Assembly: GCA_032718475.1 (NCBI GenBank)
Contig: JAUCBJ010004127.1
Location: 1 to 64,000 of the forward strand
Source of the DNA: Nemertoderma westbladi
Taxonomy: Eukaryota > Animalia > Xenacoelomorpha
Direction of reading: 5' to 3'
DNA: 64,000 nucleotides
The position numbers and the translations under genes are program-made. Within the stretch, counting starts at the first letter, position 1. Every line of letters starts with the position of its first letter. Shown one piece after another: positions 3,507 to 64,000 of the stretch. Under the pieces are notes generated by a model. The model made no database searches. It worked only from the letters and a program-made list of their open reading frames with translations, and had not been told where the DNA came from.

Positions 3507-3518
3507 TATATCCTTTAA
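3507..3518 (-). promoter_or_regulatory. A1 PBS position: TTAAAGGATATA, non-tRNA, complementary to LTR-internal 4283-4294
   Basis: Directly follows the LTR end ...GCGCGAACA; no TGG; exact 12-nt inverted match. Confidence 0.75.
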
Positions 3519-4760
3519 TGTTCGCGCTTTCAGACCTTTGGCAGTTTAACCCACCAAATTAAGATGTCTTCTAGATATTAAATCTGTTTTTAGTCTATGA
3601 CAAGTATTTGATTCACTACACTAGTCGAAACCAATCCGTGCGCGACCATTCACCCGCTGGATATTCCCGGGAGATTGGGTTCGACGGTTTAATTTTATTG
3701 CTATGTAAGCCTAATGTATTATTCGACTGACAGTACTATATAATCTCTGACAATATTATTCACCTTCGGTAATATTAACAGTTCCTTTAGGACGTGGCGC
3801 TTTATCTATATAAACAGAGTTATGACTTAAACTACTCACAACGATATGGCTTAATTATAATTCACATATATGGCGCATTCTTTAGGAATTGCTTCTTTAA
3901 CAGACTCACTCATACACAATGCTGCACAATACTGCACACTAATCTGCCAATCTTCACTGATTTTAGTCACATATAAAAGGAACACAGGCTGACTCATGTA
4001 GGGTCTATCAAATAACATTAGATTCACTTCAAACCACTTCAACATAAGTCACAATCGTTATTGGTAACCTTTCTCTCTTACCTTCGGTATATCAAGAATA
4101 TTGGGTTTCGGGGTTATTTATCGTTATTCCAAATATAATAATTCATCAACCATATTATGAAGAACTGACAGTAAATAGCAGTATAAAACAACAACTGAAC
4201 ACTGATTGTTACGAGTTTGCAATGTTTCAGCAGTCAGTATGTATGATCAGTTAGCAGTAGTCGTTAGGTGCGGTCAGGTCAGTTAAAGGATATATGCCCT
4301 TTATAATTAAACCTACTAGTGTAAGACTAAAAACAGTAAAGCACAAAATACTTCCAAGCCGTTCTTTCTTAGGCTCAGGACTGAATGTAAACACTGCACA
4401 TAGGCATTGCGTCATTTCTCGGAAATTTTCTGTACAAGGAGCCACAAAAACGCTCTGATTGGCTGACTGAACTGAGAGACGCCGTAGAACAAAGGAAATC
4501 AACACGTATGAATGTCAGCTGTTAACCGTAGTCATAGTAACTACTGTTCAAGAGTAGCTATCACCCTTTTGCGTCACGAATTGCCATAGAATCATAAAAT
4601 ATGCCTTTCACAGTACACATACGGAGGAAATAGGTCTTAGATCCTCTAAAAACACCGATACAGCAATAATACGGTCTCTTACACTTATTAAATCAACTAC
4701 AGAGTATTTTAATGTAAAAGATAATAAAAATAACGGGGCAATTCAGCAAAGGCTTTTACA
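3519..4760 (-). repeat. A1 5' LTR (divergent subfamily, ~1240 bp)
   Basis: TG...CA termini (sense TGTAAAAGCC...GCGCGAACA); homologous to 31288-32475; CCAAT box at ~4455-4462. Confidence 0.85.
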
Positions 4761-7270: not shown

Positions 7271-10200
7271 CTAAGGTGCCCCCTCTAGTAGGCAGCACTT
7301 CCCTACAGCCCTCCTGTAGGTCTTCCTATCTTTCGCTCCTATCTTACCACCTATCCGCACTTCTACCGATCGGACTCTTCCATCCTCATCGGAGTAAGTG
7401 CCCACAACTCTTGCCAATCGCCATTGATTGTTGATGATGGTATCGTCCGTGACGATCACCAGATCACCCTCCTTTAACTCCCTGTTTGTATTTCTCCACT
7501 TGCTTCTCCTATGAAGCGTGGGTAGATATTCCTCGACCCACCTCCTCCAGTACTCCGCGCTTATCGCCTTAGCGACATTCCAACTCTGTCGGGAGTGTAT
7601 ATCGTCTGGGTCTACACCCCGCATGTCGATGGTCGCTGGCCTTTCCATTGGAAAGTGACTGGGCGTCAGCACATCTAATGACTCTGGATCATCATTTTCT
7701 GGATATAGCGGTCTGCTATTAATGATACCCTCACACTTTGCTAGTACCGTCCTCAGTACGTCTTCTGTTACCATGTGGGTGTTCATCAACTTCGTCATCA
7801 GACGCTTTGAACTGCCCACGAGTCTCTCGACGCATCCTAGAGTATGCGGAGCATACGGCGTCCTCCTCTCCTACTTCACCTGTCATCTTCTCATGGCTGC
7901 CCTGACTTCCTCCCCTTCCAGGATATCCAAGGCCTCTGTCATCTCGTTCTCTGCCCCCACAAAGTTGGTTCCACTGTCGGAGTATATTACTGCGATCGTC
8001 CCACCTTTGCGGTCTCTGAACCTTTCTAGGGCATTAATGACTGCCGATGCGGTTCTATCTTGGGCGAGTTCTATCCCTACCGCCCGCGTGTTGTTACATA
8101 CGAAGATAATACTGTAGCGTTTCTCCATGTGTCGCATCACCTTAATCTTTATCGGCCCGAACATGTCCACACCGCAGTGCGTGAATGGCGGGTCGTGCTG
8201 TCTCACCCTACTGGCCGGTAGTGGTGCCATCTGCTGTATGGCTCGTTCCTTCTTCATTCGTCGGCAGGTCTGGCACTGCCCCACCACCGCCTTTACCTTC
8301 TTCCTCAACTGTTTGACCCAAAAGGTCCTTCGTATCTCCGTGAGGGTCCGGTTGGTGCCCCCGTGCAATATCGACTTGTGGGAGTCCCAGATAATCTGGT
8401 GGACCATCGGCGATCCATTAGGGATGATGATGGGCTTTGGCGGAATGATAATACTGTTGTTGTTCAACACCCTAGAGTTCATTACTAAGATCCCGTCATC
8501 ATTGAGTTGTGGCGACAGCACGATCAGCTCACTGTCCCGTCGGAGATGCTGTTGTTTACCGACGCGTTCCACCTCGTCGCCGTAATTCTTTCTCTGTTTG
8601 TAGCGGATGACAGCCTTGGCCGCTCCCTCCAGATCGATGGTTGTTCTAATTTTTACGTCTTTGCCGACTCCCTTGAGGAAATCCCCGAAGGCTCTCCAGT
8701 ACGCCACTAACTTCTTGGTCTTGTACCAACTAGAGCTGTAGCTAAGGAGTTTGTCCGTCGGGTTATCGCACAGTTCTTCCGGTTTTGGTTGCACGTCCCT
8801 TATCTCCCTCACCATTTGGCTATATATCTCTTCACCCTCTGAATCTCCCTCCTCTTCTTCTAATGCTACTGTCCCTGAGCCTGGGTCCACCTTTCTCATC
8901 GGCGGCCAGGCTGTCTTATCGTTCAGAAACTGCAGCCCGTGTTGCCACAATACTTCCTTCTTCAAGAAAGTGTGGCGTGCCACGCCCCTCGATAACAAGT
9001 CCGCTGGGTTCTCGTCCGTTGGGCAGTAGTGCCACCTTTCTAACTCTGTGGTCGCCCTTATTTCGTCCATCCTATTTGCGACGAATATAGGGTATCTCGT
9101 CCTTTCGTTATGTAGCCAACCAAGCACTACCATGGAATCCGTCCAGTAGTGTGTCTCCACTATGTTGGGAATAACGTCCATTAAGTAGGTTGTGGCCCTA
9201 ACTCCTAGCCTCGCAGCTGTTAACTCGAGCTTCGGAACCGATGCTGAATCTGGTGGCGTCGACTTCGCCTTGCTGAATGCGAGTCTGGGCTTGTGAGCCC
9301 CCTCTCGTTGTACTATGTAGAGTGCCGCTCCGTATGCCTCTAATGATGCATCGGAGAACATGTGTAGATCCAGATTCGTCATGTCCCCATCCGGGAAATA
9401 CACGTGTGGCATGCTGTATGTTCCTATCTGTTCTAAACTCTCTGTCCACTTGCACCACTGCTTGCTGATCTCTCCCGGTACCTCTGTGTCCCACTCCTCC
9501 TTTAGTTTGTATACTTTCTTAAGTATCTGTTTCCCCGTGACTAACAATGGGGATGCTAGGCCTAGGGGATCGTATATCCTTGCTATGTACGACACATAGC
9601 CCCTCTTTGTGTGGATGTCTGCGCCTTCCTGGCTCAATTGGTACTTTAGTTCGTCTGTCTCTCTGTTCCACACGATCCCTAGTTCCTTCTGTTGGGACTC
9701 TATCCTCTTGTTCGCCATGTCCTGTCCCTTGGCTGTCGTGGGATTATCCATAGTCGATTCTGGCCTCCTGTCCTCTATGGCCTTGATAAATTCTCCGAAC
9801 TGGATTGGAACTTGGTTAGGTTAAAGCCGGATCCTTTAAGGATATCGCGAACCTCGCGCCCTGTGTCCAGTAGTTCCTTAACCGTGTTTCCAGACTCCAT
9901 TCCGCCATCCACATAGAAGCCGCGTCGAATCATATCGACGGCTTTGGCGCTTTATTTATCTTCCTTCCCTTCTACCGTGTCTCTTACGGCCATAGTCGTT
10001 GTAAACGAAGACGACTTGGCTCCCATATTCTGTATTACCATCTTGTACATCGGTATTGTCAACGGTTCCTCGTCGCCGTTGTACCATAAGAAGCGTTGAT
10101 TGTCGCTATCCTCTTCCGTTACACGGACTTGGTTGAACATGCCTTCGATGTCGCAGGTGAAGGCGTGCTTCCCGTTCCTGAATCTAAGTAGGACCTCGAT

Positions 10201-12518: not shown

Positions 12519-13705
12519 TGTTCGCGCTTTCAGACCTTTAGCAGTTTAACCTGCCAAATTTAGATGTCTTCTAGATTATAAATCGACTTTAGCCTATGAC
12601 GAGTATTTGATACACTACATTAGCCGAAGCCAGTCTATGCGCGACCATTCACCCGCTGGATATACCCGGGAGACTGGATTCGGAAGCTTTGACCTTATTG
12701 CGGTGTAGGCCCACTGTATTATTCGACTGATTGTTAATATATAATTTCTGACAAATATTATTCACTTTCGGGAAATATCAACAGTTCCTTTAGGACGTGG
12801 CGCTCTAAATATGTAAACAGAGTTATGACTTACACTAGACACAATGGGATGGCTATTGATTCACGTATAAAACGCATTCTTTAGGAGATGCTTTGTTATC
12901 AGTCACAATCATGCACACTACCGCACAATGCTGCACACCGATCTGCCGACCTTCACTAATTTTAGTCACATATAAAGAGAACAGCAACCGACACATGTAG
13001 TGCCTATGAAATAGCATTAGATTCACTCCAAAACCAATATAATGTAAGTCGCAATTGCTATATGTAACCTGTCTCTTACCTTCAGTATATCAAGAAGATT
13101 GGGGGTTTTATGATTATTTATCAATATTATCCAAATATAATAATATTCCATCAACTGATATAATTAATAACCGACAGTAAATAGCAGTAAAAATGTGGTG
13201 TTTGTAGGTGACAATATGATTTGTGTTGAGTTGGTATGGTTTGATTTGTGGTTTGATAACAGTTATACGTTTCTATGACCAAAGCCTACTAATGTTTGGC
13301 TAAAGCCTGAAACACAGAAATTCCAAAGCCGGTCTTCTGGCTGTGGACAAAATACACATACTGACTCAATTGCATGATTTTCTGTATACAATCTCCAACA
13401 CAGAGTCAAAAAACGCTCTGATTGGTCGACCGAACAAAGAACGAACAAAGAACAAAGAAAAAGCTACACGTGTACATATCAGCTGTTAGATGTCGTCATG
13501 GTAACTACACTGTATCAAGAGGATTTTGGCTTATTGCGACATAAGATCGCTAGTTATGTCCGCTAAAGTACACATACAGAAGAAATGGCTTTTTTTGTCC
13601 ACTAAAACACCGGTACAGTAAGGAAACGGCTTTTTATGTCCGTTAAAACACCTACAGAGTACTTTGCGGGGAAAATAACTAGCTAGATCCGCAAAAGCCT
13701 TTACA
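12519..13705 (-). repeat. A2 3' LTR
   Basis: About 99% identical to 31288-32475; preceded by PPT-like GGGAGCGG at 13706-13713. Confidence 0.95.
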
Positions 13706-14890: not shown

Positions 14891-15337
14891 TTACAATGTT
14901 TCTCTCAAGAATTCCAAATATACGTTGGAGTTACCGCGTTTATCCGGTTCTTTAACGTCTTCTCTTTCGATTCGATTTCGAATAGAATTTTCGCATTCGA
15001 TTTTCAGTTTATCGTTCCGACTCCGCTGGGTAGGATATTTAAATAGTACCATTTCCCTTTCGGTGTCGACATCGTCCGTATCGTGTAAATCGATAGGATA
15101 ACCAGTAGTTAAGAAGCCCATATGCGTACCATTACGATGCGTATAGCGAGCAGTGAATTTTCGATAGTCCAATTCACGCGTAAGTTGCTCCTGGGACATC
15201 GGCGGTTCGATATAACGACCATCGTCCTCCGTAGTAGTTGGACTAGCGTCGCTGCGTATCAAGCTATCAACAAACGCTTGCAACGGTAGAGTATATTTCT
15301 CCCTGATACCAAGATCATCTTCTATCAACTCAGTCAT
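14891..15337 (-). CDS. Family A 3' accessory ORF1 (148 aa), unknown function
   Basis: ATG-initiated; same length and ~87% identical to 55263-55709. Confidence 0.55.
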   Translation of the reverse strand: MTELIEDDLGIREKYTLPLQAFVDSLIRSDASPTTTEDDGRYIEPPMSQEQLTRELDYRKFTARYTHRNGTHMGFLTTGYPIDLHDTDDVDTEREMVLFKYPTQRSRNDKLKIECENSIRNRIEREDVKEPDKRGNSNVYLEFLRETL

Positions 15338-16974
15338 AGCTGCTATATGAGTTTATCAATATTATAATGAGTTTATAATTAGGCTAGCGGGCGTCGCTGC
15401 CTACCCCTCTCGGCCCCCGGACAGCGCAAGATCCTCAGCGCTGGTGTACTTTCGCCGATGTGCCTATCGCCAACGTAGTAGCTGCACAACGACCACAACA
15501 ACCAGCGCGAGTCACTCCACCGTCCGTCCCAAAGGCTTAGATTTACTTCAGGTTCTTACTGGAGAGTTAGGGCTACTTTCACAATTGCGACTCGCTACTG
15601 TAAACACACTTTAGTAGTAACATTCACCTATAAACGCACAAATTCCACACAACTGTCACAAACCGCACACATTCGGGCCATTTGTACATTAGTCAAGTGC
15701 CTTCCAGAATGTCACGTTATTATCGGGTATCTTTGGATACTAGCAGTGTGCTATTTTATTCCTTATGCTATTCAATGGGGCAAGCCTTTATTGTTCTTTT
15801 AACTCACTTCTAATTCTAGCGTGGTTGTTGCCATGGTGACATTATGGAAAGCTAGCAGTAGAATTAGGGTAATTCTCATGCATACAGATCTGGGATGCTA
15901 TTTAATAGTAATTCTTTAATTGTCAATATTCCTCTTTATACATGATTTTATGAATTTTATCGGCTATTGACTATATATTGGAGATTCTCGCACACTAATA
16001 TACTTAATAGGGTGAATCTCCGCTCCCATGATCTATTAATTAATGGAATTTTGGGAATGTTATAAATTGTATAAAATTGACAATTTATCAAATTCATTAC
16101 AAAGATGAATTTAAATTTATTCCCGTAAATTTTATTATTTAATATTAAAATAGACACCATTTTATTCCAGAACATATCTGGGGACTGGGATCCTTGATTC
16201 TAGGAAATTTGTCCTTTTAAGAGTATCGGTAAGTGCTACGATATCTTAATTGACTAGAATTTTAAAGGATCTAAATTTTGACAGATTTTATAAATATTAA
16301 TAGTTAATATTTAAGATGGGCACCGGTTTATTCCAGAACTTGTCTGGGGACGTTAACCACTGATTCTAGAATTTTGTCTTTCAAGTATATCGGTGGGTGC
16401 TGCGATATCTTAATCGACTAGAATTACAGATGGTCAAAGGGTTTAACAGATTTATTTTGCGTTTTACGCTACTGTTAAAGGGACATCACGCTACTATATG
16501 TATTATTTAATATACGGTATGAGAGCAATATCGCAAGAAGCAATGTCAGTGAGAAGAGGCAAGTCGTTTCCAAGGTCTACCCAGAGCTTGGTTTAGCCGA
16601 GACACGAGGATCTGAACTTTGCATTCCTAATACTCTACTTACCAATAATACTTGAATATAGTAGGAGCTTTATTGTACTTTAATAAGTATGGATATTTCA
16701 TCTTACTGTAGTTACGTATTTGTAATGTAATACGGACAGTAAGGAAAGAGAAAAAGAATTATTTCTCGCCGTCGCTCTAAATATATAATATATAAGTAAT
16801 TAAGTAATAAACACTAATATATATTGCACTAATTTACTAAATAATCGCTAAAATAACATTCTACTAAATAAAATTAAAGAAAACGATTATAATAAAATTA
16901 CACAATAATACATACATAAATATAAAATAATAAGAATATAAAATAATATAGTCACACACCCACTCCAGACGTTG

Positions 16975-19900
16975 TTAAGTTGGGGAGTCCCTAGATGTTT
17001 GTTGGATTAGGGAGGTGGTCGTGGGAAGAGTATCTTGCCTTCCATAGTTTCCGGAGAGTTCTCTGTCTCTTTCTAGTAAACATAAACGACCAACTGGGCG
17101 ATTGAGCTGCTGTGTCTCGAAGACAATTCCCGGTTTCTTAAAGTTACGTCGCATGACAACGAGTTCTACCGATCGCACCAAACCATCATCCGAGATGTGA
17201 GTCTCGATGATACGACCTGTCTGCCACCGCTTACGTGGAAGATCTGAATCCACAATAAGGACCATGTCTCCAGCGCTGACGTTTTCTTGCTGCACAAACC
17301 ACTTAGTTCGAAGTTGTAGCGTGGGCAGATAATGTTTTTCGAAATGGTCAGCGAAACGACGGGATAACAACTGCATAAGTTGCCAAGTTTGCCGGCAGTA
17401 TTCGTCTCCGTCTGTGATTTCCGATCGTGGGAGCATGGCTACAGGTTTCTTCAGTAGGAAGTGCGCGGGTGTTAGCGCTTCCAGGGAATCGGGACTCGAT
17501 GAGACTGGCATAAGCGGTCTCTCGTTGAGATAGGCGGCGATTTCCTCCATTAACGTCCGCAAAAGTTCGTCGGTGAGATACGCGCGGCACGGCACTATGA
17601 AGTGAAATGCGGTCTTCACGCTCCTGATTAATCTCTCCCAACTTCCTCCCCACCAAGGGGCGTCGGCGGCGTTGAAGGTCCAGCTAGACGCTGTTAACCT
17701 TAGCTGATCGTCCACCTGTCTTTGGTTCCAATCTTTGACGTAAGCTTTGATTTCATTGTTGGCACCAATGAAGTTCGTTCCCTTATCAGATCTCATCGTG
17801 TTACTAGTTCCAAAGCGAGCGATCTGTCGCCGTAAGCTCAATAGGAAGCTGTTGGTAGATAAATCGTTCACCATATCGAGATGGATAGCTCTACAAGTCA
17901 TACAAACAAAGATGACACACCATCTCTTGACTATAGTCCTAGCACGGTATACTTCAATAGGGCCAAATATATCTACACCGGTATTAGTAAAGGGTGGTTC
18001 ATAGAAGCTTACTCGTTCCCTAGGTAATTCTGCCTCTCGCTGTGTTAAAGGCCTACTGAATGCTTTCCTACAGGGTATGCAGTTCCTAAGAACTTGGTTC
18101 AGAGCTCTACGGGGTTTATAAAAATAATAGCGAATTCGAATTTCGCTAAGAACTCGTTCTCTACCAGCATGATAAAGTTTGCTGTGAACATCTACAATCA
18201 TCTTGATTTGTATTTCAAGATTTCTAATGAGTATGGGAAACTTGGTGTCAAAGGATAATGGAGCATTAGTTAATCTTCCTCCAACACGTATCAACCCATC
18301 TATCATTGTGCTAGAGAAACGATCCCTTAAGCGCATCTGTGGATTTCTCAACAACAGGAAATACTCATCGGAATCCTCACAGCATTGCAGGAGTCTCAGC
18401 ATCTGCTTGTTGGTTTCTTCATGCTCCTGATAACTGATCTTCTCCTTCAGAAACCTGTCGCATATCTTATATTTGGGAAGATCTTTAACAACATGGACCT
18501 GCACAGATGTCAGTGGAGCGGTATCACTATTGGTCTTCGCCCTGGAGTAGTGATGATGAAAACATCGCTTTAAATATGTAACGGCCTTACAGAGCCGATT
18601 CCAGGAACTGTAGTGATATATCGCTATCTGCAGGAGAGGTGAGAGTCCTTGCGAGACGTCTGGTATTCCAGATTTCCAATCCCTCTCTCTGATTTCCACA
18701 ACAGACTTATTTGCGGCTGTGGGTTTCGGATCCAAAGCGTCGTCTCCGGAAGTGTGTAGTACAGACAGATCTACCACGGGTTTAAATAACTTCGATTTAC
18801 TCGCCCGAGTTTTAGGTTTGACTTTCTCCACTCCCTTGGCCTGTCTAATCTCTGCCGTAGTAAGATGAGGAGGCCATTCATCCTCTTCTTTGCTTAGGAA
18901 GTCGGGTCCACCTAACCAGTCTGGAGTATCTATCAGTTCTTGTGGAGTTGCTCCCCTGGAGGCGATGTCTGCTGGATTAATCGTTCCGGGGCAATGTCTC
19001 CATTGATCCATCTTCGTGCGACTAAGTATAATGGCTACTCTGTTGGTAACGAAGACGCTGAACTGACAGACTTCATTGGTTATATACTCCAACACGAGTA
19101 AAGCATCGGTCCAATAGACAGTTTTCTCCAGTGGATAGTCGATCTGTTCTGTTACATTCCGGCCGATGGCTGTAGCATATAAAGCCGCTTTTAACTCCGC
19201 TCGAGGAACTTTCAACTTGTTGTTTATCAATGCCTTAGAGGTAACCAAGGCGACTTTGATTCCATCCGGAGTTTCCACTCTCAGGTAGGCTACTATACCT
19301 ATTCCCATATCGCTGGCGTCTCCAAACACATGGAGTTGATAGGAATACGTAGGGAGAACATGACCAAAATATGAACGGGAAATTATAAAGTTCTCGATGG
19401 CTGGTAGAGAATCTTCCCATTTCATCCACTTCTTTAATAATTCTCCCTTAAGTGGATCGTCCCATGAGTGGTTTTCAAGCCACATTTGTTGTACTAAACT
19501 CCGAGCAATCAATATAACTGGGCTAATAAATCCCAATGGATCGAAATAAGTGCTCAGGATACTTAAACAAATCCGTTTAGTCCGAACTGGATTATCTCGC
19601 TGTTTTAGCTGGAAAAACAGGATATCTCTCTCTGTGTCCCATTTCAAACCAAGTGTCTTGGTTTCTGGAAGATCATCTTTGATTAGGTCTAGGTCTTTCG
19701 CTCCTCGATCTTCTACCAGGATCGATTCTAGAAACTCACGGGAGTTGCTGGTGAATTTAGTTAATCGAAATCCACCTCTTTTTAAGCACTCTACCGTTCC
19801 TTTGGCGACATCAATGGCTTCTTCCACAGATGGAAGGGACTTTAAATTGTCATCCATGTATATATCCCGTTTGATGTTGTCGATCACCTCTTTTGAGAAG

Positions 19901-22900
19901 GCGTCCCGGTTGTCATCAGCAGTGGTGCGCACCACTGAGCAGGCGTTTGAAGGGCTTGAGATGATCCCAAAAGCCTGGATGGTCATCCAATACTCCACCG
20001 GTTTCTGGTTGAGGTCTCCTTCAGGCCACCACAGAAATCGTAGGCTGTCTCGATCCCTATCCAGCGCCTTGACTTGTAAGAACATGCCTTCTATATCGTA
20101 GGCGAAAGCGATTGAATATTCCCGATTGTATTCCCAACAAGGATTGGAGTAAGTTGGGTCCTGGTAACAACTCGAAATTAAGGGATTGGCCCATGTAGAG
20201 GGCGGAGCCATCAAATACTACTCGTACCTCATGGGGTTTACCGGGTTTGGGAACGTAATGATGTGTTAAATAGTACATTCTCTCAGTTAGGGGTGTTCCT
20301 TCCGGTACTCGCTCCGCATATCCCTTGTTAATAAATTTCTTCAACTGAGTCTGATACATTTCTTTAGCTGAAGCATTTGCCGTAAGGCGTCGATGTAGTT
20401 GAGCAATTCTTTTCTCCGCCAAGGGTCGGTTGTTTATGAATTTTGGTTCTCGCTTTCGGAATGGGAGACCGATTTCATATCTACCTTGATCTTTAAGAAA
20501 ACGTGTAGTTGTCTCCTGGATCTGCTTGGCTCTTTCTTCTTCTACCGATAGGGCCTTATCGTAGGAATTGGGCTCTACAGCCTCTTGAGTAAAGAATCGT
20601 ACGGCGTGTTCATCTCGAGTTTTCGCGTTATATCTCTCGATTACGTCATTCAGTTTGTCGTTATAGTCGACTTGTCCTGATGGACGAATGACTTGACATA
20701 GGTTCACTTGGTTTTGCCAAGTCTCGTTTTCCGTAAGGATATCGATGGTATTCTCCTCGTCGAAGAGCTGGTGGATATCGTCATTATCTGAGGAGTATGG
20801 TGTTCCCTCAGTTGGGTCATCAACTTCACTGCTCTCCACTTCCCATTCACTTAATTGATATACCTGTTCTTTTGGTACGCTTATGTCCTTCTGGGCTCCT
20901 CCCCGAGGCGCACCCATGAGGCGGATGCTTTTCCACCACCCTTGGGGCCAGTCCGACTGATGTTTTTATCAGACCGGGCCGGAGGGTAGCCCGATGCTTC
21001 CCGGGTTCAATTTTCAATCCCCCGATCACACCGGCACAGCTCGTCAGTGTAGCCAGATGGTCGGCTACTGTCAACTTACTGTGGCCTGACTGTACATTGA
21101 GCCAACTCAGAGAGTCAACCGGCGGGTGGACCAGTCGATAGCGATCGAGCATCAAGGTCGCCCTTGAGCCAAACCGACGGTCTTGTCCCAACGCTACCCA
21201 ACATGGAATATTGACACGTTTTCACCCGCCTCGCAGGCAGTATTGAGGGGAAGTCAGTTCCGCAAACAATACTGACTAGCTCGAAAGCTAGGAACAAGTA
21301 AACACTTACCAGTCACTGTACACGTGTACTCAACAGATGTTCACAATATCAAGTACACTACGGTAAACACAAAATCTGACACATACCATGCACACACAGA
21401 GGACATAATCGGGAAAGACAAAATCGGGGACAAAATCAGAGGGGACAAAATTGTATCGACTGTTAAAAGAGTCGAGAGTACCTTATTTTGCCGTCAGGGC
21501 AAAATATTTTTGTGTGCACAAAGTATGCTGGGGCGCAGTAAAGATATGGTCCTACTAATACCAGCGGCGTCTAGACCAACCGGCAAGGGTTCCCATACTC
21601 ACTCGCAGTGGCCATACATACACTCACGTATACCACGTACCCACAGCAACAGAAAGCTCAAGCAAACTGCCACTGATCGTCCACACGCAAACCACAGATT
21701 CCAGAGTATCATTCACTCGGACCACACTACGACACCAACCCCTCCTTGCAGCCGATATTCCGGGTGCTACCTCCATTCCAATAGTAGTACCAACAGAATC
21801 ATCAGAAACCTGCCCATTCCGATGCAACACCTCCATTCCAATAGTGCTACCCTGGGAAAAGACACGTTTTGGCAACCGATCGGAGACAGTAAAGAGTCTG
21901 GTCAACTCATACATACCAAACATAGACCTACCACATAGACCACAGATCACACTAAGCCACCACCCCTACTGTGTACAGGACTGGCAGTACGGCAACAGGC
22001 CGACTAGACGGTACCACGGCACCATGTTAATTCATGGTTCGCAAGACACGAGGGCCTTCAGTATCTCCCTTGCACTATACATGGGATTTAACGTGCCCCC
22101 AGACCCTCACGAGTCCGCCGCCGCCTGTTAAATACCCCCTATAGAGACCTCACCTCTTTAGGATCTTTCCATGAGAGTTCTACGGGAAGGGCCAGTAAAG
22201 TACCAACCTACTCTAGTTCTTCCCGCATAGACTTGTAATGGTTGCGGTTGAGCAGGCCGTTTCTCCAATGTCTCAAGCGCTTCATGCGCATTTTGGCCGA
22301 TGAGTATTTGCACTCCAGGGTAATCTGTGTTGAATCTAGGTATATAAGCTGCTGGGTGGAATCGTCCTCATCCCAGTTATAAGGTTCTACTTGGCTGGTA
22401 GCGAAGTTCTTTATCGCCACCATTTTTACTGACCTTATACTGTGTTCTCCTAGTTCATCCTGGGGGGTGGACAACGCACCTACATAATAATCTGCTATTA
22501 CTGTAGATTTCTAAACCTGCATAATTCCTGACATGTTTAACTTAGTTCGGAACTTGGGTTGTCCAGCAAAGATGTCTTCGGCTAGTTCTTTGTCGATGAA
22601 TGTTCCTGTGCTACCGGAGTCAAGGAGGGCGTTCACTATATAACTCCTTTTAGGTCCGTGGACCCTCAACTGTACTACGGGAAATTCTCGGATTCCTACA
22701 TTGGAAGTTGGTGCTTTCCAAGATGGTTGTCGGTCAGAAGTAGTTAGGGGGAGCTCGCTATCGGTATCCTTTTCATACGTAAGTGCTCGATACACTGCGG
22801 TATTTATCAGGTAACAGGATTCGTTTTCGTCGGAGAATTCGTCCGTATAGAATCCTTCCATCTCAGAACTTTGGTCAGTGTCGTTCACATCACTGAATTG

Positions 22901-28391: not shown

Positions 28392-30956
28392 CAGTCCCTA
28401 TCTCATTCTGAATATTATTTCTCAAACTGGGTATCATTTCTCAAACCTTTTACTAATGATAGTCAAGGGAGAATTTCAGTAGGTAAGACTGGGGTAAGAG
28501 TTGAGAAATCAGAAAGATGCAGCCAGCTCAATCTAACTCAAACTGGAGTCTGGCGCCATGGTTTGAGTTAGGTTGACTTCCAACTGTGCCATACTCAGCA
28601 TTACTCTTCCTGTACGGGATGGATAATTACTCTGGTTGAGTGAGGCACCACCACATGGGGAAGGGGCCTCTGTCTGTTGCTTGGGCTCTTGAGTTAATGG
28701 GTTGAATTACATAAGCTGGGCAGGCCGGCTTGCGCGTGTGTCTCATAAAAGACATGTCAATCACGCAGTTCCTTTGTGGGCTCTACTAAATGTATGTTGT
28801 TAACTAAACTACACTGGCTCGGTCTGTTTGTAGAGAAGTTTTAATTCTGGGAATATTGTTGTGGGAAATTGGTGCTCTGTTGTCTGTCTGTTTGATGTCA
28901 ATTGGTGCCTTACAAGACATATCAGTTTAAAAATCTAATGGTTAAATAAGAATTATTAGTGCATATGGGACCTCGGATTAAGCCTCATGCGAATTTAGTT
29001 CCAATGGAAACGAATTTAGTTCCAATTTAGGCGAACTTAGTTCCAATAACTGGAGAAAAACGAAAACGAATTTAGTTCCAATGGATGCGAATTTAGTTCC
29101 AATGGATGTGAATTTAGCTCTAATTGATGCGAACTTAGTTCCAATGCATGCGAATTTGGTTCCAATGGAAACGAATTTAGTTCCAATTTAGGCGAACTTC
29201 GTTCCAATAACTGGAGAAAAACGAAAACGAATTTAGTTCCAATGGAAACGAATTTAGTTCCAATTTAGGCGAACTTAGTTCCAATAACTGGAGAAAAACG
29301 AAAACGAATTTAGTTCCAATGGATGCGAATTTAGTTCCAATGGATGTGAATTTAGCTCTAATGGATGCGAACTTAGTTCCAATGGATGTGAATTTAGTTC
29401 CAATGGATGCGAACTTAGTTCCAATGCATGCGAATTTAGTTCCTCCAATGGATGCGAATTTAGTTCCAATGGAAGCGAATTTAGTTCCAAAGGGGCGAGC
29501 CACGTAGTTGGCGTAGAATCTGTTTAATGACACTATTAAGAGGCTGGTTAAACAATAATTGTAAATAACTAACCCAAAACGCCCAACCTCCTGACGAAAA
29601 CAATCTTATCCCAAACAACGCCCAAGCTCATAACCCAAACTACGCCCAACCTCCTAACCCAAACAACGCACATCCACCTAAACCGAAAGAACTAGTAAAT
29701 ATTGTATTTGTTGTGATAAATGGCACAATGTGCATGACTTGAGTATATAATACTACAGACTCAGTCAGTCAGTATCAGTATACTCGTCATTAATATATAA
29801 TTCAAAATGTGTAATTATACATTTAATAATAATTCGTTTTTTAAAAATGACGGAACGGTTTTACAATTATTTACAATTATTGTTGACCCTGACCCACCCC
29901 AAATATTGACAATACGCAATAGGCTTCGCCTACTACACGTGGCTATCCCCACGATTGAAACTTTGAAACTAAGTTTGTACCCATTGGAACTAAATTCGCT
30001 TCCATTGGAACTAAATTCGCTTCCATTGGAACTAAATTCGCATGCATTGGAACTAAGTTCGCATGCATTGGAACTAAATTCGCATGTCGCATCCATTGGA
30101 ACTAAGTTCGTTTTGATATTCTGGGAGTGATTGGAACTAAGTTCGCCTCGATTGGAACTAAGTTCGCTTTGTAAAATTTATTTTCGAACTAAATTCGTTT
30201 CAATTGGAACTAAGTTTGCCTTTGAAACTGTGCGATTGGAACTAAGTTTGTGCTACCGGGACCTCGCAACACCCACCCCCCCCCCCCCCCCCTCCCATAA
30301 ATATGGCCCTGTCTATAATTACAGAGGTTTCCTCTGGCCCCTTTGCCCGGTATACCCACCCCACACCCGGATGTATTGCGAATAATTGTGTTGACGATGT
30401 AATAGAGAATTAAACATTAGTAAAACATTAGTAAAACATTAAAGTTAAACATTAGAAACATTAGCGAAATATACGCGACATTAAATTAAATTTATAAAAT
30501 TGGTTGGTTATATTATATGGTTATATTTTAATGTAAAATAACGTTAATATGTTATGAGTCATACATACTTAATAAATGTAATAAAAAATTATTAAATCTT
30601 CAGTTTAATTAATTTAGCATATAATTTTTTTATTCTGAAATTTAAAAATAAATTGAGTCACTGAGTCTGCAACTTAATTCTCACGATCTACTGGAGTTAA
30701 TTACACACAAACAAATCAAGTTTAGGGAATGTTATAACACAGCAGGAGACCATCAAACCCGTAGGCAGAGTATAACAGAAACCATGGGCCATTAAACACA
30801 GACAGCTTGTTGTATGACTGCTACACAGTGCACAGTGGGTGGATATGCGAGTTTGAGTTGGGTTTGAGTAAACCAGACAGGTTTGAGTTAGTAAGAGTGA
30901 TGTAAGAGAAAAGGTACCCAGTTTGAGAAAGGGTATCTAGAATGAGATAGGGACTG
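28392..30956. mobile_element. Non-autonomous Tc1/mariner-type DNA transposon in the A2 leader
   Basis: TIRs CAGTCCCTATCTCATTCT / AGAATGAGATAGGGACTG; TA duplication; empty site in A1 (~3259). Confidence 0.88.
28976..30257. mobile_element. Foldback/Mutator-like non-autonomous insert
   Basis: 9-bp direct repeat GGGACCTCG at 28967-28975 and 30258-30266; arms built of 21-bp units (gcgaatttagttccaatggat) in opposite orientations. Confidence 0.7.
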
Positions 30957-31276
30957 TACACGTCTTCTGCTCAACATTAACCTACAAATAAATAAAACTG
31001 ACAGAAATAAGTAAAATCCCAATAAAAAACCAGGGCTGCAGTCCCTGATTAAATATTAAGGCCTACCGGTATATAATTATCAAAAATCGAATAATACTGC
31101 TTTACCTGTACTGCTGTAAGTACCGGTTCGGCTGGTTAGGTTGTTAGGCCTACTGGGTACCGGTTGACCGGTACTTCAGCTTTATTGCCTACTGCAATAC
31201 AGAAGCAATAACTGTTATTGTTCTTACCAGAACAATAGACAACTATATTTATTGCCTACACTGCAATCTGAAATCA

Positions 31277-31287
31277 ATAACTGTTAT
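31277..31287 (-). promoter_or_regulatory. A2 PBS position: ATAACAGTTAT, complementary to LTR-internal 32026-32036
   Basis: Abuts the LTR end; no TGG; exact 11-nt inverted match; duplicated at 31208-31218. Confidence 0.75.
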
Positions 31288-32475
31288 TGTTCACGCTTTC
31301 AGACCTTTAGCAGTTTAACCTGCCAAATTTAGATGTCTTCTAGATTATAAATCGACTTTAGCCTATGACGAGTATTTGATACACTACATTAGCCGAAGCC
31401 AGTCTATGCGCGACCATTCACCCGCTGGATATACCCGGGAGACTGGATGCGGAAGCTTTGACCTTATTGCGGTGTAGGCCCACTGTATTATTCGACTGAT
31501 TGTTAATATATAATTTCTGACAAATATTATTCACTTTCGGGAAATATCAACAGTTCCTTTAGGACGTGGCGCTCTAAATATGTAAACAGAGTTATGACTT
31601 ACACTAGACACAACGGGATGGCTATTGATTCACGTATAAAGCGCATTCTTTAGGAGATGCTTTGTTATCAGTCACAATCATGCACACTACCGCACAATGC
31701 TGCACACCGATCTGCCGACCTTCACTAATTTTAGTCACATATAAAGAGAACAGCAACCGACACATGTAGTGCCTATGAAATAGCAATAGATTCACTCCAA
31801 AACCAATATAATGTAAGTCGCAATTGCTATATGTAACCTGTCTCTTACCTTCAGTATATCAAGAAGATTGGGGGTTTTATGATTATTTATCAATATCTAT
31901 CCAAATATAATAATATTCCATCAACTGATATAATTAATAACCGACAGTAAATAGCAGTAAAAATGCGGTGTTTGTAGGTGACAATATGATTTGTGTTGAG
32001 TTGGTATGGTTTGATTTGTGGTTTGATAACAGTTATACGTTTCTATGACCAAAGCCTACTAATGTTTGGCTAAAGCATGAAACACAGAAATTCCAAAGCC
32101 GGTCTTCTGGCTGTGGACAAAATACACATACTGACTCAATTGCATGATTTTCTGTATACAATCTCCAACACAGAGTCAAAAAACGCTCTGATTGGTCGAC
32201 CGAACAAAGAACGAACAAAGAACAAAGAAAAAGCTACATGTGTACATATCAGCTGTCAGATGTCGTCATGGTAACTACACTGTATCAAGAGGATTTTGGC
32301 TTATTGCGACATAAGATCGCTAGTTATGTCCGCTAAAGTACACATACAGAAGAAATGGCTTTTTATGTCCACTAAAACACCGGTACAGTAAGGAAACGGC
32401 TTTTTATGTCCGTTAAAACACCTATAGAGTACTTTGCGGGGAAAATAACTAGCTAGATCCACAAAAGCCTTTACA
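31288..32475 (-). repeat. A2 5' LTR
   Basis: Sense TGTAAAGGC...GCGTGAACA; CCAAT at ~32190, TCAGT Inr-like motif at ~32132. Confidence 0.95.
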
Positions 32476-35097: not shown

Positions 35098-35106
35098 TCT
35101 TATCAC
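35098..35106 (-). promoter_or_regulatory. B PBS position: GTGATAAGA, complementary to LTR-internal 35325-35333
   Basis: Abuts the LTR end; no TGG; imperfect pairing extends over 35083-35109 versus 35322-35348. Confidence 0.75.
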
Positions 35107-35696
35107 TGTGATGGGATCCGAGAATCCCGATTTATCCGGTGTCTTATCTACGCGTCCCCGCCTTGCGTGTGTGAAAAGAGTTCTGGGGTTGTTGACTGAT
35201 CGGTATGTATAAACATATAGCGTATAATATAGTTGAATGAAGTATAGCACAGTTGATTGATTTAACAGTTGATTAAATGTACTGGTAAATAACTGAATGA
35301 TGGTGGTGGCAGTAGATGGAGACAGTGATAAGAGTTCCGGTACTGCCCTAACTAACTGACTTACTAAAGTGAATGAAATGACACAATAACTGGTAATATA
35401 TTGCACTAGTTGGCCGTATTACATTACTCAGTGGATGCCTTCCCCCCATTGGCTAATAACTCACTTCTCGCCCTCCCATCTCTCTGGGAGTGTTTCCCCC
35501 TGCTACTGTCACTCTCTCCCTCCTGGAGGTGTAACCTCTGACCCCCGCTGTGTGTGTGTCCCTTTGGGGTTTGTCGCCCCGTTTATTGGGGTGATACGAG
35601 GTTGATTGGCAATCAACCTCGTACTCCCAATATTGCTTAAAGCTCTTGCTTGGCCAACTTTGTGTGGGGTGGTTAGCGGAATTGAATACGCTAACA
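35107..35696 (-). repeat. Family B 5' LTR (590 bp)
   Basis: Sense TGTTAGCG...CCCATCACA; TSD follows. Confidence 0.95.
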
Positions 35697-37374: not shown

Positions 37375-40320
37375 TCACATATAGTTATATACAATCACAT
37401 ATAGTTCAATTATTAATACAGCAAATAAGCACAGGGAATAGGAGCACAAATAGTATTTAGTTCGACATAAGTTATGTATTTGCAAGTATGGGTATTGGCG
37501 GGCATGCGGCACATTGTAGAACATCGCTGTGTGAAATATCGCTGTCGCTGATATCGAGATATCGCTATCGTGAAAGTGTGTGGAAAGGCTTTTCGTTTGT
37601 ATAGAGTTTATGGTGAAAACCGCGAGCGGTCGTCCTGGCAATGATGTGTCGGTTTGTCTGTTTGGCCAGTTTCCATGTAGATGTAGTAAATGCCTGTCCC
37701 ATTTCGTAGAGTTCAGAAAGAAAATTGTTTTCTCGGTCCTGTCTAAATTCATGGAATTTTTCAAGTACACCAGTCACCAGTGTCAAAAATGGTTGGATAT
37801 TTTAGTAAAATGTCAGAAATGAATGTTTTCTCCCTGAGTAGGTGCAGCGCCAACGTCGATGAAGCTGATATATGTAGACCCAGCATTCTCTTTATGTGTG
37901 TTGTTTTAATTAGGGCTCTTTCCTTTAGGTGTGATAGCTTAAGAAAACGAGCGAATATTGGAAAGGCATATAGGGCAATGGGGGCAATTTTCATGTGAAA
38001 TATTCTTAGACCTGTTTCAATGGAAACGAGCTGCAAGTTTTTTATTGATGCAATAATCCTATAGCACTTTTTCTTTTTCGATTTTATTTGTTCACTGAAG
38101 CTGAGTGAAGTTTGTACTATTACCCCCAGATATTCATACTGGTTCAGATTGGTACGGTTTGACCCCTGCAAGTAAAGTTATCAGTGCAAGCTACTGTAGG
38201 TGCCCTCCTTTGCGAAATTTAATTATCTTTGTCTTGTCCATATTAATTTCCATATTAACTTCCATATTTTTGTTTATACACCAGGTGTGAGTTATGTCTA
38301 GAGCGTTTTCAATTGCCTGTTTGTCCGTTGAATAAAAAACAAGATCGTCCGAATAGAACAAGAACTTTAAGTGTGTAATTGCCTGACGTAACATAGTTGC
38401 CAAGTCAGCGATAAATATAATAAAACACGTGGGCGAAAAGCAGTCTCCCTGTAGTATGCCTTGGTACTGCATAATTTTGTCGGTGATGCAAAGCCCATCG
38501 AAAATATGAATATAGTTAAATTGTAATAAATCCTTGATCACGTCAAACAGTTTACCTTTGATGCCAAAGTCATAGATTTTCGACAGCAGAATCGCTCGGT
38601 GTACAAAATCAAAGGCTTTACGAAAATCAATGAAGCAGATGTATACTTTCCTATCCTCTCGGTTAGCTGGTTGTAAGGCTGTGGCTATGAATGTAAGTAA
38701 GATTTGTATGGCGTGGGAACAAGATCTGCTAGGTCGGAATCCGAACTGCTCGTCAAGAAAAAGTTGTGAAACAAACAAACCTACACGAGTATTGATTATG
38801 GAAGTAAACGTTTTTAACAGAACTGAAATCAAGGCGATTCCCCTACAGTTATTGGGGTTGTTTATTGCTCCGTTCCCTTTGTAAAGAATCATAATGAGGC
38901 TTTCATTCCAAAGAAGCGGTATCCGTCCTAAGTTGAGGCACGCGTTGTATAAAGTCACTAGTATCATTAGGGTAAACGGCATTGTTAATTTAAGATGCTC
39001 GTAGTAAATCCCATCTAAACCATTGGCTTTCCCATTAGCGGAATTATTAATGCTGGCTGTAATTTCATCTTCTGTTATAGGCGAGTTAATAAAATATGCG
39101 ATTAAAGTTTTGATAATGATGTATGGAGCAGCTTGCTTGATGCTGGAAGGATTTAAATGCGATTTGCATAAATCCATAAGATCCCCCGATGGACATCCCC
39201 TAGTTGGTTTGACAGCTGCCTCCGAGAAGCAGTAGTATAATTAGTGGTGATGTGAGACATCAGTGTATAGAGTTTCAGTCAGGAGCACAACATCTGCGTT
39301 GCCATAAAGTTCAGAGTCAGTCAGAGTGTCTGCTAAATATCGAAGTCCCTCCACATTCAAACACATACCTTTGTGCTCCGATCCTAGTCACTGTTGCTAA
39401 TATCCGTATTCCTTCGTGTATTTCCTCCATACGTGTTACCGGAACTCTCGCGTTGTTGAAGACGCAACTCCTTTCGGTCTTGTTCACTGAGTCGATAGTT
39501 GCGGATAGTGATTCCGGTCATCCACAACACCGGGTTCATGACTTCCTCGCGATTTTTCTGGTTACATATGATATGAAAGCTCTTGAACATCGAGGTGCCA
39601 TCCTTCAGTGTTAGCTCGTTGACATCCTCAAAAGTAATATTTTCACCCCTGAAGAAACCGGCAATATCTTCCTTCGTTGTTTCATTGTGTAAGCGGCTGA
39701 TGTGAATGTGAGCTCATCCACCATTTGCGGGTTCCACTGGTGCTGCAGCGTGGAGAAGGCCATCCGCCCTACTTCCCCGAACTAAAGGCCGTGGTTGGTA
39801 TACTGACTGGTGGATATCGTTTGCGTGTGCGAATTGGTGGTGTTGTTTGGTGGAGTTTGACATGTAGTTGGAGTTTCCAACTGAACTTTGGCATCGATCC
39901 GAGTCCGAGGCAGCAGCAACGGACGCAGGGGTGCACCATGCAGCGTCGCGGCCACGAGAGTCCGCCCCGGCGTTTCCACTTCCCCGAACAGCGTTGCTGT
40001 AAGGACGGCGAGTGGGATATACGGATGGCAGGTGTGCGGTGCGTTTCCTTGTGGTTGGTGTCGGCTGTCACCATCCCTAAGAAACTCTAGCAGCTCATTC
40101 TTTGCTGCCAGCGTTTCCTTGCGAGCATCGGCAACATCCTTCCTCATTTCGGCCAGATCACCTAATGAGGCTGTGTACAATGAACCTAGCGCCATAAGCC
40201 AGTCCATTAACTGTTTCTCGTCATCGTTTGATGTACTTTTCTTGTGGCGGATTGTTCTAATAATAGACAGAATGTTGTTCTGGATTGCAGTAAAGCTGTC
40301 AGATTCAGATTTTCATGGCG
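37375..40320 (-). mobile_element. Degenerate LINE (L2/Crack/Daphne-like): ORF1 remnant, partial endonuclease, RT
   Basis: RT motifs QFGFRP, FIDFRKAFD, LQGDCFSP, YSDD, YEYLGV; endonuclease start DVVLLTET; ORF1-like HISRLH...SFHI...NPVLW.TGITIR. Confidence 0.8.
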
Positions 40321-42417: not shown

Positions 42418-42750
42418 GAGCTCGGCTCGGTCTGGCACGATTGTGCTCGATTCAGTTCGACTTGGCTTGATCGGCTCGGTTTGGCTCGATTGGGCTCGAC
42501 TCGGCTTGATTGGGCTCGACTCGGCTCTATTGGGCTCGACTCGACTCGATTGGGCTTGACTCGGCTTAGTCTGGCTCGACTCTGCTTGATTGGGCTCAAC
42601 TTGGCTCCGTCCGGCTCGACTCGGCTCGATTGAACTCGACTCGGCTTGATTGGGCTCGACTCGACTCAGTCCGGCTCAATTTGGCGTGACACGGTTCGAC
42701 TCGGCTCGATTGAGCTCGGCTCGGCTCGGTCTGACTCGACTCAGCTGAGT
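42418..42750. repeat. Pentameric (CTCGR/CTTGR)n simple repeat
   Basis: ctcggctcgactcgattggg... 5-bp periodicity. Confidence 0.85.
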
Positions 42751-43259
42751 CTGGTGGTGCAACTGTTGTACTGTAATACAGTAATAAAGCCTGTTGACCA
42801 GCAATTTGGCCGAAAACGACTACAGAATAGCCCAATTTGACCACAAATATGCATCCACAAAGGGCATATACAGGCATCTGGGCTGAGCATATGCATAAAA
42901 GTATTATACAGTATATAAAAATGTAGCTTCGAGATAATGACGGTTCACGTTCACACGTGCTTAGACCGATATGCATCACGTAGACGTACAAGATAAGCCC
43001 CAATGTGTAGTGCAGTAGCGCAGCTGCAGACTGAACTGCTAGGCCTACCACGAGCCCCACATCAGCGACCATGAATTAAGCTTTCACGCAAACAAACGTG
43101 TAAAATAAAACCCTGAGACAGTGACAACTGTTTGCATCGTGTTAATACGCATCGAATGAGCCATAAAGCAAGGAATGAGAGCGAAATCTGACGACGTGTA
43201 TCGATGGACATACATATGTACAAACTGAGCAGATTTATATATATTATTACAGTAGATAG

Positions 43260-56889: not shown

Positions 56890-58082
56890 TGTAAAGGCTT
56901 TTGCGGATCTAGCTAGTTATTTTCCCCGCAAAGTACTCTGTAGGTGTTTTAGCGGACATAAAAAGCCGTTTTTACGTGTTACTGTCTGTATGTGTACTTT
57001 AGCGGACATAACAAGCCATTTTTGCCGCAATACGCCAAAATACTCTTAATACAGTGTAGTTCAGATGACGACATCTATCAGCTGATATGTCGACGTGGAG
57101 CTTTTTGGCTTTCTTTGTTCTTTGTTCGGCTCGACCAATCAGAGCGATTTTCATTTTATCTTGGACAGTGCCTATAGAAACTCATGCAATTCAGTCAGTG
57201 TGTATCTTTCTAAGCCCAGAACACCGGCTTAGGATTCTTCTGTACTTCTGTGGAAGTTTCAGACTTTGACCTAAACCTCAGAAACATCAGATGGCTTTGA
57301 TCAAAGGAACGTAAAACTATTAACATAGCACACAGCAGACTCACGGCGCAGCACACCGCCACATCGCGGCATCACGCAACGCGATTCAACTACACATACT
57401 GACTGTTCACCGCATTATTTGATTCTGTTATTAATTGGTGTTACTGTGTTATGTTGGTATATATTGCTGATATATTTGGAGAATACCGATGAATAATCAT
57501 AAAACCCTCAATCTCTTTGATTACTAAAGGTTAGAGGAACAGGTTTACCGGTAGCAACTGCGACTTACATTATAGTGGTTTTGTGTGAATTGAATGCTAT
57601 TTCATAATCCCTACATGTGTCAGTTGCGATCCTCCTTATATATGATCAAATTCAGTGACGGTTGGCAGATCAGTGCGCAGTAGTGTGAACTAGTGTGAAG
57701 TCGTGTGAAGTAGTGTGAAGGTTAATAAAGCATCTCCTAAAGAATGCGCTTTTTACGAAACTCAGTAGCCATCCCGTTGTGATTAGTATAAGTCATAACT
57801 CTGTTTTATACTTAAAGCGCCACGTCCTAAAGGAACTGTTAATATTTCCCCGAAAGTAAATATATTGTCAGAGATTATATATTAACGATCAATCGAATAA
57901 TACAGTAGGTCTACACTGCAATCACTATCAAAGCATCCGAATCCAGTCTCCCTTAACTGTGGGTGAATGGTCGCGCACAGGCTGGCTTTGGCTGATGTAC
58001 CTTCAGTACATTAAATAATTGATATACAAAAAGACACCTAAAATTGGCAGGTTAAACTGCTAAAGGTCTAAAAGCGCGAACA
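56890..58082 (+). repeat. A3 3' LTR (third LTR variant)
   Basis: GGGAGCGG|TGTAAAGGC...GCGCGAACA. Confidence 0.9.
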
Positions 58083-62299: not shown

Positions 62300-62448
62300 T
62301 ATTTCAGGATGAAACTCCGTTACAGATAGGACTATCATACAGATACGGCTGAAGACCTACAGTCTGTAACGCATCGATAACTGGTTATAGAATGCGTTAC
62401 AGATGAGACATGCCCTATCTGTAACGCACTGCACTGTAACGGGCGCCT
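62300..62448. mobile_element. Probable Harbinger-like MITE end truncating the A5 LTR
   Basis: Internal inverted cgttacaga/tctgtaacg motifs; terminus AGGCGCCCGTTACA (minus) next to TTA. Confidence 0.35.
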
Positions 62449-64000
62449 TTAGCAGTTTAACCTGCCAAATTTAGATGTCTTCTAGGTTATAAATCGACTT
62501 TAGCCTATGACGAGTATTTGTTACACTACATTAGCCGAAGCCAGTCTATGCGCGACCATTCACCCGCTGGATATACCCGGGAGACTGGATTCGGAAGCTT
62601 TGACCTTATTGCGGTGTAGGCCTACTGTATTATTCGACTGATCGTTAATATATAATCTCTGACAAATATTATTCACTTTCGGGAAATATTAACAGTTCCT
62701 TTAGGACGTGGCGCTCTAAATATGTAAACAGAGTTATGACTTACACTAGACACAACGGGATGGCTATTGATTCACGTATAAAGCGCATTCTTTAGGAGAT
62801 GCTTTGTTCAGTCACAATCATGCACACTACCGCACAATACTGCACACCGATCTGCCGACCTTCACTAATTTTAGTCACATATAAAGAGAACAGCAACCGA
62901 CACATGTAGTGCCTATGAAATAGCATTAGATTCACTCCAAAACCAATATAATGTAAGTCGCAATTGCTATATGTAACCTGTCTCTTACCTTCAGTATATC
63001 AAGAAGATTGGGGGTTTTATGATTATTTATCGATATTATCCAAATATAATAATATTCCATCAACTGATATAATTAATAACCGACAGTGAATAGCAGTAAA
63101 AATGCGGTGTTTGTAGTTGACAATATGATTTGCATTGATATGCAGTGTGTTGAGATAACAGTTATACGTTTCTATGATCAAGCCTACTAATGTTTGGCTA
63201 AAGCCTGAAACACAGAAATTCCAAAGCCGGTGTTCTGGCTGTGGACAAAATACACACACTCCCTGAATTGCATGAGTTTCTGTATACAATCTCCAACACA
63301 GAGTGAAAACCGCTCTGATTGGTCGACCGAACAAAGAACAAAGAAAAGTTACACATGGACACAGCTGATAGATGTCGTCATCGGAGTTCTGATGTTTAGA
63401 GTATTTGGCTTATTGCGACATAAAATCGCTAGTTATGTCCGCTAAAGTACACATACAGAAGAAATGGCTTTTTATGTCCACTAAAACACCGGTACAGTAA
63501 GGAAATGGCTTTTTATGTCCGTTAAAACAACTTCAGAGTACTTTGCGGGGAAAATAACCAGCTAATTCCGCAAAAGCCTTTACACCGCTCCCAGAAAATG
63601 GGATTTAATTCTATAAAATATAAAAAATCACAGTTTCTAAAATATAAAAATACTCTAAACAGTTAGTCTTTCTTACGCGGATGGCGTTTACGCAGTTTTT
63701 TGAGGCTATCAAGAGTCCTTTTCTCTTTGGGGCGAGCCACTTTACTAGGAGGGCTGTAACTCCTGGGTGAAGGGTGCAATACAATTGCATCGGAAGGTTT
63801 AGGGTTACGGTCGATGTCTCGTCCATTTCGATATGCTTCTCCTCGAGCTGATTTTCCTCCGCTTATTGTTGGATGCATTCGTCAAAAACTCTTGCAGAGA
63901 ATAGGGTCGTCCAAGTTCAATATCTTCTTAGAGATTCTGAATTTCCTGATCGAACTGAGATAAAGTTAATTCGTTTACCGCTTGGACTTGCTGCTGCAAT
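62446..64000 (-). mobile_element. Family A copy A5: 3' LTR (62446-63584, last ~16 bp missing), PPT and ORF3 remnant
   Basis: Closely similar to A2 12535-14310. Confidence 0.92.

Follow-up and report, generated by a model that had tools for sequence, protein, structure and literature searches.

The window, the whole 64,000-nucleotide stretch of Nemertoderma westbladi DNA analysed here, contains nested BEL/Pao retrotransposons with Peptidase_A17, DUF1759, DUF5641, and integrase domains (Table 1). In two of these elements, A and B, the pol and gag domains score above the Pfam cut-offs. Element A, on the minus strand, extends from the 5′ LTR A2 to the 3′ LTR A1, which show 13 differences from each other, and is inserted inside the gag of B. 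Both elements have a TG...CA LTR pair, a purine tract, and a short target site duplication (TSD). Their pol frames are 28% identical to each other, and the closest proteins to B among the best 120 matches reach at most 36% identity. A Pfam search finds no chromodomain in A or B, and their pol is of the Pao type, not that of a Ty3/gypsy chromovirus. The LTR patterns have no match in viral_contigs or metagenome_contigs, and B pol together with a 32-row alignment finds no relative in viral_contigs.

Table 1. Features of the BEL/Pao elements in the window (positions of the 64,000-nucleotide stretch; primers and cut sites are predicted).
Feature	Position	Strand	Remarks
5′ LTR of A (A2)	31288..32475	-	1188 nt, TGT...ACA; TSD GACAC
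3′ LTR of A (A1)	12519..13705	-	preceded by purine tract 13713-13706
5′ LTR of D	3519..4760	-	~80% like A2 over its 3′ half
5′ LTR of B	35107..35696	-	3′ LTR at 5732-5141; TSD CCTTC
3′ LTR C, A family	56890..58082	+	third 11-mer at primer position, 57313-57323; PBS of C lies outside the window
Truncated 3′ LTR A3, A family	62446..63584	-	A primer at 63165-63155
pol reading frame of A	16975..20217	-	Pao peptidase A17/RNase H region, integrase, DUF5641
pol reading frame of B	7883..9820	-	Peptidase_A17, integrase
CCAAT box of A2 (NF-Y type)	32184..32197	-	CCAAT starts at 32195
TATA-like word TATACAGA in A2	32151..32158	-	TATACA starts at 32158; weak
Inr-like TCAGT in A2	32130..32134	-	A at 32132; 63 nt downstream of CCAAT
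Putative self-primer of A	32026..32036	-	11 nt, perfect PBS complement; predicted cut after 32026
PBS of A	31277..31287	-	abuts LTR end; no TGG
Second copy of A PBS	31208..31218	-	within 69-nt tandem duplication
Primer 11-mer copy in A 3′ LTR	13256..13266	-	expected from LTR duplication
Putative self-primer of D	4283..4294	-	12 nt; columns homologous to A primer
PBS of D	3507..3518	-	
Putative self-primer core of B	35325..35333	-	9 nt
PBS of B	35098..35106	-	
B sequence upstream of primer	35340..35361	-	can pair with leader 35092-35083 and 35054-35047
Strong splice-donor-like site	31842..31851	-	175 nt downstream of A primer; conserved in A, A3, and D, variant in C

In A, D, and B, the primer-binding site (PBS) adjoins the end of the 5′ LTR without a gap and is complementary to a stretch inside the element's own LTR. 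This self-complementarity is solid. Dinucleotide shuffles equal the complement in 1 (A2), 0 (D), and 9 (B) cases, each of 2000, while the flanks of four 3′ LTRs, which served as controls, offer a complement of only 3–5 nt that is reached by 885–2000 of 2000 shuffles. The primers of A and D differ at 4 of 11 positions, with every change compensated in the PBS. Behind the LTR ends of A2, D, and B, the first 45 nt contain no TGG start, and a tRNA-type PBS was not seen there. The loop from primer to LTR end spans 218–764 nt. The D primer also resembles what we take to be a U12 donor word, a likeness that we ascribe to chance, as A and C differ there. In A, the last LTR bases and the PBS are repeated in a 69-nt tandem duplication (31292-31155, minus strand), of which the proximal PBS copy was the one used, as the 3′ LTR end shows.

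The first-pass annotation, made from the letters alone, had placed the 3′ ends of these primers at 32026, 4283, and 35325, with CCAAT, TATACA, and TCAGT motifs about 95 nt or more upstream of the A2 primer and a similar layout offset by ~25–40 nt in B. Its coordinates and offsets are correct. The Inr-like A of A2 is 96 nt upstream of the 11-mer, and the Inr-like A's of B, 35374 and 35357 among them, are 24, 41, and 46 nt upstream of the 9-mer at 35333-35325; in D the corresponding A is at 4382. Also as described there, the 11-mer recurs in the 3′ LTR of A, and the sense strand of the A2 LTR has no AATAAA, nor does it have ATTAAA.

The CCAAT box of the A family lies in a 12-mer, CCAATCAGAGCG, that does not change across A1, A2, A3, C, and D. 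RRCCAATSR, which we take to be the extended NF-Y-type consensus, has 13 matches on the two strands of the 64 kb, and 7 of them fall in the 7 LTR copies, which belong to two unrelated LTR families. The distance from this match to primer base 1 is 119 nt in B, 157–159 nt in A, 169 nt in D, and 178 nt in C, and CCAAT is found at 4462 in D and at 35452 in B. The typical position of NF-Y is −60/−100 from the start site, according to the available text of PMC4889920. An Inr-like TCA[GT]T follows CCAAT by 58–95 nt in 6 of the 7 LTR copies and is missing in A3; as background, 13 of the 160 CCAAT words in the window have an Inr-like word at this distance. Measured from the primer, Inr-like words are 24–120 nt upstream, again in 6 of 7 copies. 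The TATACA word is not kept at the aligned columns of C or D, and B has TATATT at 35400. A match to TATAWAW with up to one mismatch is absent at −34 to −24 from primer base 1 in 7 of 7 LTR copies. Together, these motifs favour, but cannot prove, a start site 90–120 nt (A family) or 24–46 nt (B) upstream of the primer. An ordered CCAAT-TATA-Inr pattern (4 matches in 128 kb, in the A and B LTRs only) is not counted, because it was tuned after seeing the LTRs. We also discarded an intron beginning at the TCAGT of A2, whose donor-like letters are lost in A3, C, and D and overlap the predicted start.

Relatives of these elements were fetched by motif scan, which yielded 91 BEL/Pao loci: 14 from genome bins and 77 from metagenomes, the latter out of the best 80 of 565 confirmed stretches. 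In a FastTree phylogeny of 86 of these 91 loci with A, B, and 21 proteins (five loci were too short and left out), A and B form long branches in one clade with at least 21 loci (support 0.849), separate from loci with a tRNA-type PBS; the tRNA-type label of L009 in this tree is wrong, owing to a motif match inside its reading frame. Eleven of the 21 clade loci show an LTR end and a PBS, and the other ten are truncated or unresolved, three by automated scan only. The 14 BEL/Pao loci from bins (L078-L091) sit on contigs of prokaryotic genome bins and are probably animal DNA carried into them.

In all 11 informative relatives, the PBS complement starts within the LTR at an AG acceptor rich in pyrimidines. 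When this is joined to a GT donor further upstream, 9–13 bases are paired, versus 5–9 unspliced. The spliced complement is longer in 10 of 11, and L014 gains nothing with its top donor. These introns are predicted from motifs and donor weights. Ranked by intron-side letters only, the matching donor comes first in 5 of 10 relatives and 3rd, 5th, 6th, and 20th in four others, the last being L078 (20th of 60). Foreign PBS sequences reach at most 7 nt, and shuffled PBSs do as well in 6, 2, 6, 15, 0, 0, 65, 0, and 0 of 5000 cases, with L067 not captured by the thresholds. L014, L030, and L060 are close kin and do not count as independent. On contigs with a single LTR, the position of the LTR end could be suggested by the match itself, so we ran a scan blind to that end. 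It recovers 9 of 11 relatives as the top match, missing L067 and L078, and all nine recoveries lie behind a CA or TA terminus with 3–8 of 8 bases of terminal inverted repeat. In 12 tRNA-type controls, one of which started a few bases off, the same scan gives four chance matches of 9–10 nt and none at the LTR end.

Only 2–7 nt of the primer come from the upstream exon, so a start of the Tf1 type, at primer base 1, would need a first exon of 2–7 nt. In addition, none of the 10 relatives checked has a TATA-like word at −25 to −34 of the primer. A primer laid across a predicted intron and the lack of such a word make it very likely, as far as motifs can tell, that transcription of the junction-type relatives starts well upstream of the primer. 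The window primers are contiguous (11, 12, and 9 nt in A2, D, and B), and a search of these three with the top three donors found no junction-spanning primer and no spliced match. The argument from the relatives thus reaches A2, D, and B by kinship only. In one in-clade LTR (L018:4940-5150), whose PBS is off the contig, the first strong donor is preceded at a distance of ~170 nt by a textbook TATAAAA and an Inr. The PBS starts with GT in B (35106) and in 10 of the 11 junction-type relatives (L001, L010, L012, L014, L019, L030, L037, L060, L067, and L078), and A, D, and L011 differ.

Downstream of the primer, all LTRs of the A family carry a conserved, near-perfect splice-donor word of their own, with copies at 31851-31842, 13082-13073, 62991-62982, and 4084-4075 on the minus strand and at 57527-57536 on the plus strand. 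If genomic RNA were spliced from this donor, the element would lose the intron when copied. Therefore, it may serve another RNA, be it PBS-less, translation-only, or subgenomic.

Direct sequence support in the window for an internal primer is limited to B. The 28 nt upstream of the B core add pairing with the leader, and an upstream start raises the predicted primer:PBS pairing from 0.39 to 0.99. For this single element, tested at three window sizes, the shuffle p is 0.017 and 0.007 at two sizes and 0.51 at the smallest, and 0 of 13 foreign leaders are as good at the two larger ones. Upstream pairing is not significant in A2 (p 0.44–0.58), weak in D (p 0.03–0.13), and not significant across the 11 relatives (Fisher 0.18–0.32). 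We reject it as a general sign of an internal primer, B excepted. Pairing on the 3′ side flanking the PBS is not significant in A2 or D. The predicted primer:PBS pairing of A2 is ~0 at all three starts.

We suggest that A, D, and B prime with their own RNA, and that the primer is internal to the transcript and freed by a cut of the 5′ LTR copy, a reading to which we give a probability of about 0.55. It sets out from the complementary, co-varying pair of PBS and LTR stretch at the LTR end. Transcription would start 60–100 nt downstream of CCAAT: at ~32132 in A2, at ~4382 in D, and in B near either 35374 or 35357. If priming proceeds as in Tf1, the LTR stretch of the 5′ copy would base-pair with the PBS, and the RNase H of the element would cleave behind the last primer base, at 32026, 4283, and 35325. 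The product would be a capped 5′ fragment with a 3′-OH, of ~107 nt in A2, ~100 nt in D, and 33–50 nt in B, perhaps trimmed further. Sequence upstream of the cut would have to be copied from the 3′ LTR, as follows from retroelement replication, and plus-strand copying of the primer would maintain the match between PBS and primer. A second cut that trims the primer would be one answer to how plus-strand copying stops after ~11 nt. The first-pass annotation had offered internal cleavage, releasing a primer of ~20 nt or longer, as one of two possibilities. Its view of the primer as internal is partly supported, being the better-founded of the two by the promoter anchor, the missing TATA at −30, the junction-spanning primers of the relatives, and the upstream pairing in B, and the primer predicted here exceeds ~20 nt, at ~100 nt in A and D and 33–50 nt in B.

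In the relatives, the primer would be assembled across an LTR intron that is spliced in the cap-proximal copy and retained in the 3′ copy, and an intron removed from the 5′ copy alone would survive through copying from the 3′ LTR. The window elements A, B, and D may be intron-less versions of this scheme. It is conceivable, at somewhat less than even odds, that a whole aquatic BEL/Pao lineage primes with a long capped internal fragment, that splicing assembles the primer in most members, and that A, B, and D are intron-less derivatives. Splicing of an LTR intron by the host would then set the two copies apart, the 5′ one as primer and the unspliced 3′ one as template; A, B, and D would have lost the intron and kept the internal cut.

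The main competitor of an internal primer, unlikely in our view, is a TATA-less promoter that starts at primer base 1, so that the PBS pairs with the first 9–12 nt, which are then removed, with CCAAT as a distal element. The 11-nt primer of A has the same length as that of Tf1, whose cut falls between bases 11 and 12 (PMC7175516, as far as its text is available), and the long RNA of Tf2 begins at the start of R in the accessible part of PMC5341516. Furthermore, the primers of A, C, and D open with a T|A step, which would be appropriate for an initiator, the perfect pairing in A2 ends sharply at 11 nt, the window primers have no internal junction, and the best fold of D is the one that has its start at the primer, the primer:PBS pairing predicted for D falling from 0.95 to 0.00 with the longest leader. 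The B core, however, begins at C|T, CCAAT would sit at −119 to −178, and the relatives would require the very short first exons noted above. The TATA word missing at −34 to −24 in all LTR copies also speaks against this geometry, as TATA boxes are predicted ahead of the primer in the relatives of Tf1 from fission yeast (bioRxiv 2022.12.06.519325).

The second possibility raised in the first-pass annotation was that the genomic RNA's own 3′ end, in the 3′ LTR, folds back on the PBS and closes the template into a circle. The 3′ LTR copy would then prime, with the RNA either ending or being cut at 13256. This has little support and seems improbable. The 11-mer at that site simply follows from LTR duplication. 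The A2 LTR, with neither AATAAA nor ATTAAA, would fit, as would a TATAAA, a variant of the poly(A) signal, found in D at 23 nt from the primer end and 12 nt from primer base 1, upstream of both. However, D is one LTR in five: over the 46 nt leading up to the primer end, the other four checked (A2, A3, B, and C) have no signal variant. AATAAA or ATTAAA occurs 7–88 nt downstream of the primer in 7 of the 11 relatives, and an AATAAA of D, at 3699, follows the primer by 584 nt and aligns with an AATAAG of A2 at 31468. Judged by these signals in the relatives and D, the RNA 3′ end is likely downstream of the primer, and the 3′ copy would then need the same cut. A poly(A) tail on the RNA 3′ end would block priming. 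In the relatives, fold-back would also call for splicing of the 3′ intron, behind an exon of several kb, and for retention of the cap-proximal intron, which would reverse the usual order. Finally, that the helix is no primer at all but a structural or regulatory one (in packaging, splicing, or translation control), with a host RNA or tRNA fragment priming in its stead, agrees with the tRNA priming that ICTV gives for the family (PMC8742986) but is hardly likely, as the end of the helix coincides with the LTR/PBS border in both A and D, tRNA-type relatives reach only 4–7 nt contiguous and at most 4 nt spliced complement (11 of 11), and the PBS is different in every lineage and changes in step with the LTR copy, something that a conserved primer RNA from the host would not permit.

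An internal self-primer in A, D, and B would recall the Tf1/sushi group of Ty3/gypsy chromoviruses (Tf1, Tf2, Tj1), which likewise has a 9–12-nt PBS that abuts the 5′ LTR and is complementary to the element's own LTR, and the two would share release of the primer by RNase H, a step predicted here. The elements in the window differ in that they belong to the BEL/Pao family, their primer appears to lie inside the transcript and not at base 1, the loop is 218–764 nt long, and the relatives build the primer across a predicted intron. In the yeast group, primers are at RNA 5′ ends and the RNA folds into a "pretzel" of three duplexes (bioRxiv 2022.12.06.519325). The pretzel is only partly seen in the window elements: the A2 LTR end can pair with the leader, and a putative hairpin lies near the LTR end in A2 and D. 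The hairpin of A2 (31327-31306) is retained in D with altered letters. With the Belpaoviridae as profiled by ICTV, A and B share a Gag DUF1759, Peptidase_A17, DUF5641, TG..CA LTRs, a purine tract, and a 5-bp TSD. The profile gives an 18-nt PBS for tRNA-Arg or tRNA-Gly (PMC8742986), whereas A, B, and D have no tRNA-type PBS.

Self-complementary PBSs found from sequence only are also known in copia or gypsy families, not BEL/Pao: self-priming has been predicted for the plant TAR (Houba, Osr-1) and Tcn1 lineages (available text of PMC6317226), and Cryptococcus Tcn2-5 possibly use a novel priming mode (PMC7175516, in part). Neither of these texts places the primer relative to the transcription start. 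Half-tRNA priming in the Ty1/copia elements Osser, Bryco, and Bianca, as described in the accessible part of PMC6317226, is like the internal primer proposed here in that the 5′ part of a longer RNA is used, the cut is internal, and only the 3′ end pairs with the PBS; it draws on a host tRNA, the elements in the window on their own transcript. The literature searched holds no self-priming, internal primer, or splice-made primer in BEL/Pao, including the available text of PMC4600332, PMC3601003, PMC4558846, and PMC6934838; a prior mention in older BEL papers is possible. In the portions of PMC554778 and PMC3118150 available, the PBS or primer binding goes unmentioned.

If the primer is internal, its RNase H cut must be independent of a nearby RNA 5′ end, and the working U3/R border moves to the cut site. 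It would also pose the problem of how plus-strand copying is halted when the primer is long and unmodified. Half-tRNA priming is the mode of Drosophila copia. A primer of this kind would explain why a PBS is missing from the reports of many BEL/Pao elements, and the coordinates given here allow cheap mapping of RNA ends for an internal primer.

The window holds several further features. A 24-nt block deep in the LTR (31572-31549, minus strand, and homologues) is invariant in A1, A2, A3, C, and D. The leader of A contains a 2.6-kb insertion with inverted arrays of a 21-nt unit (28969-30219), which looks like a foldback or MITE-type DNA element. Between the integrase and the 3′ LTR of A, ~3 kb (13784-16900, minus strand) hold short frames without a Pfam match and may be the remains of an additional, decayed gene. 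At 53459-55033 and 42432-42791 lie tandem arrays, with units of 55 and 10 nt, respectively, and a fragment of a LINE-type reverse transcriptase (RVT_1) is found at 38191-39240 on the minus strand.
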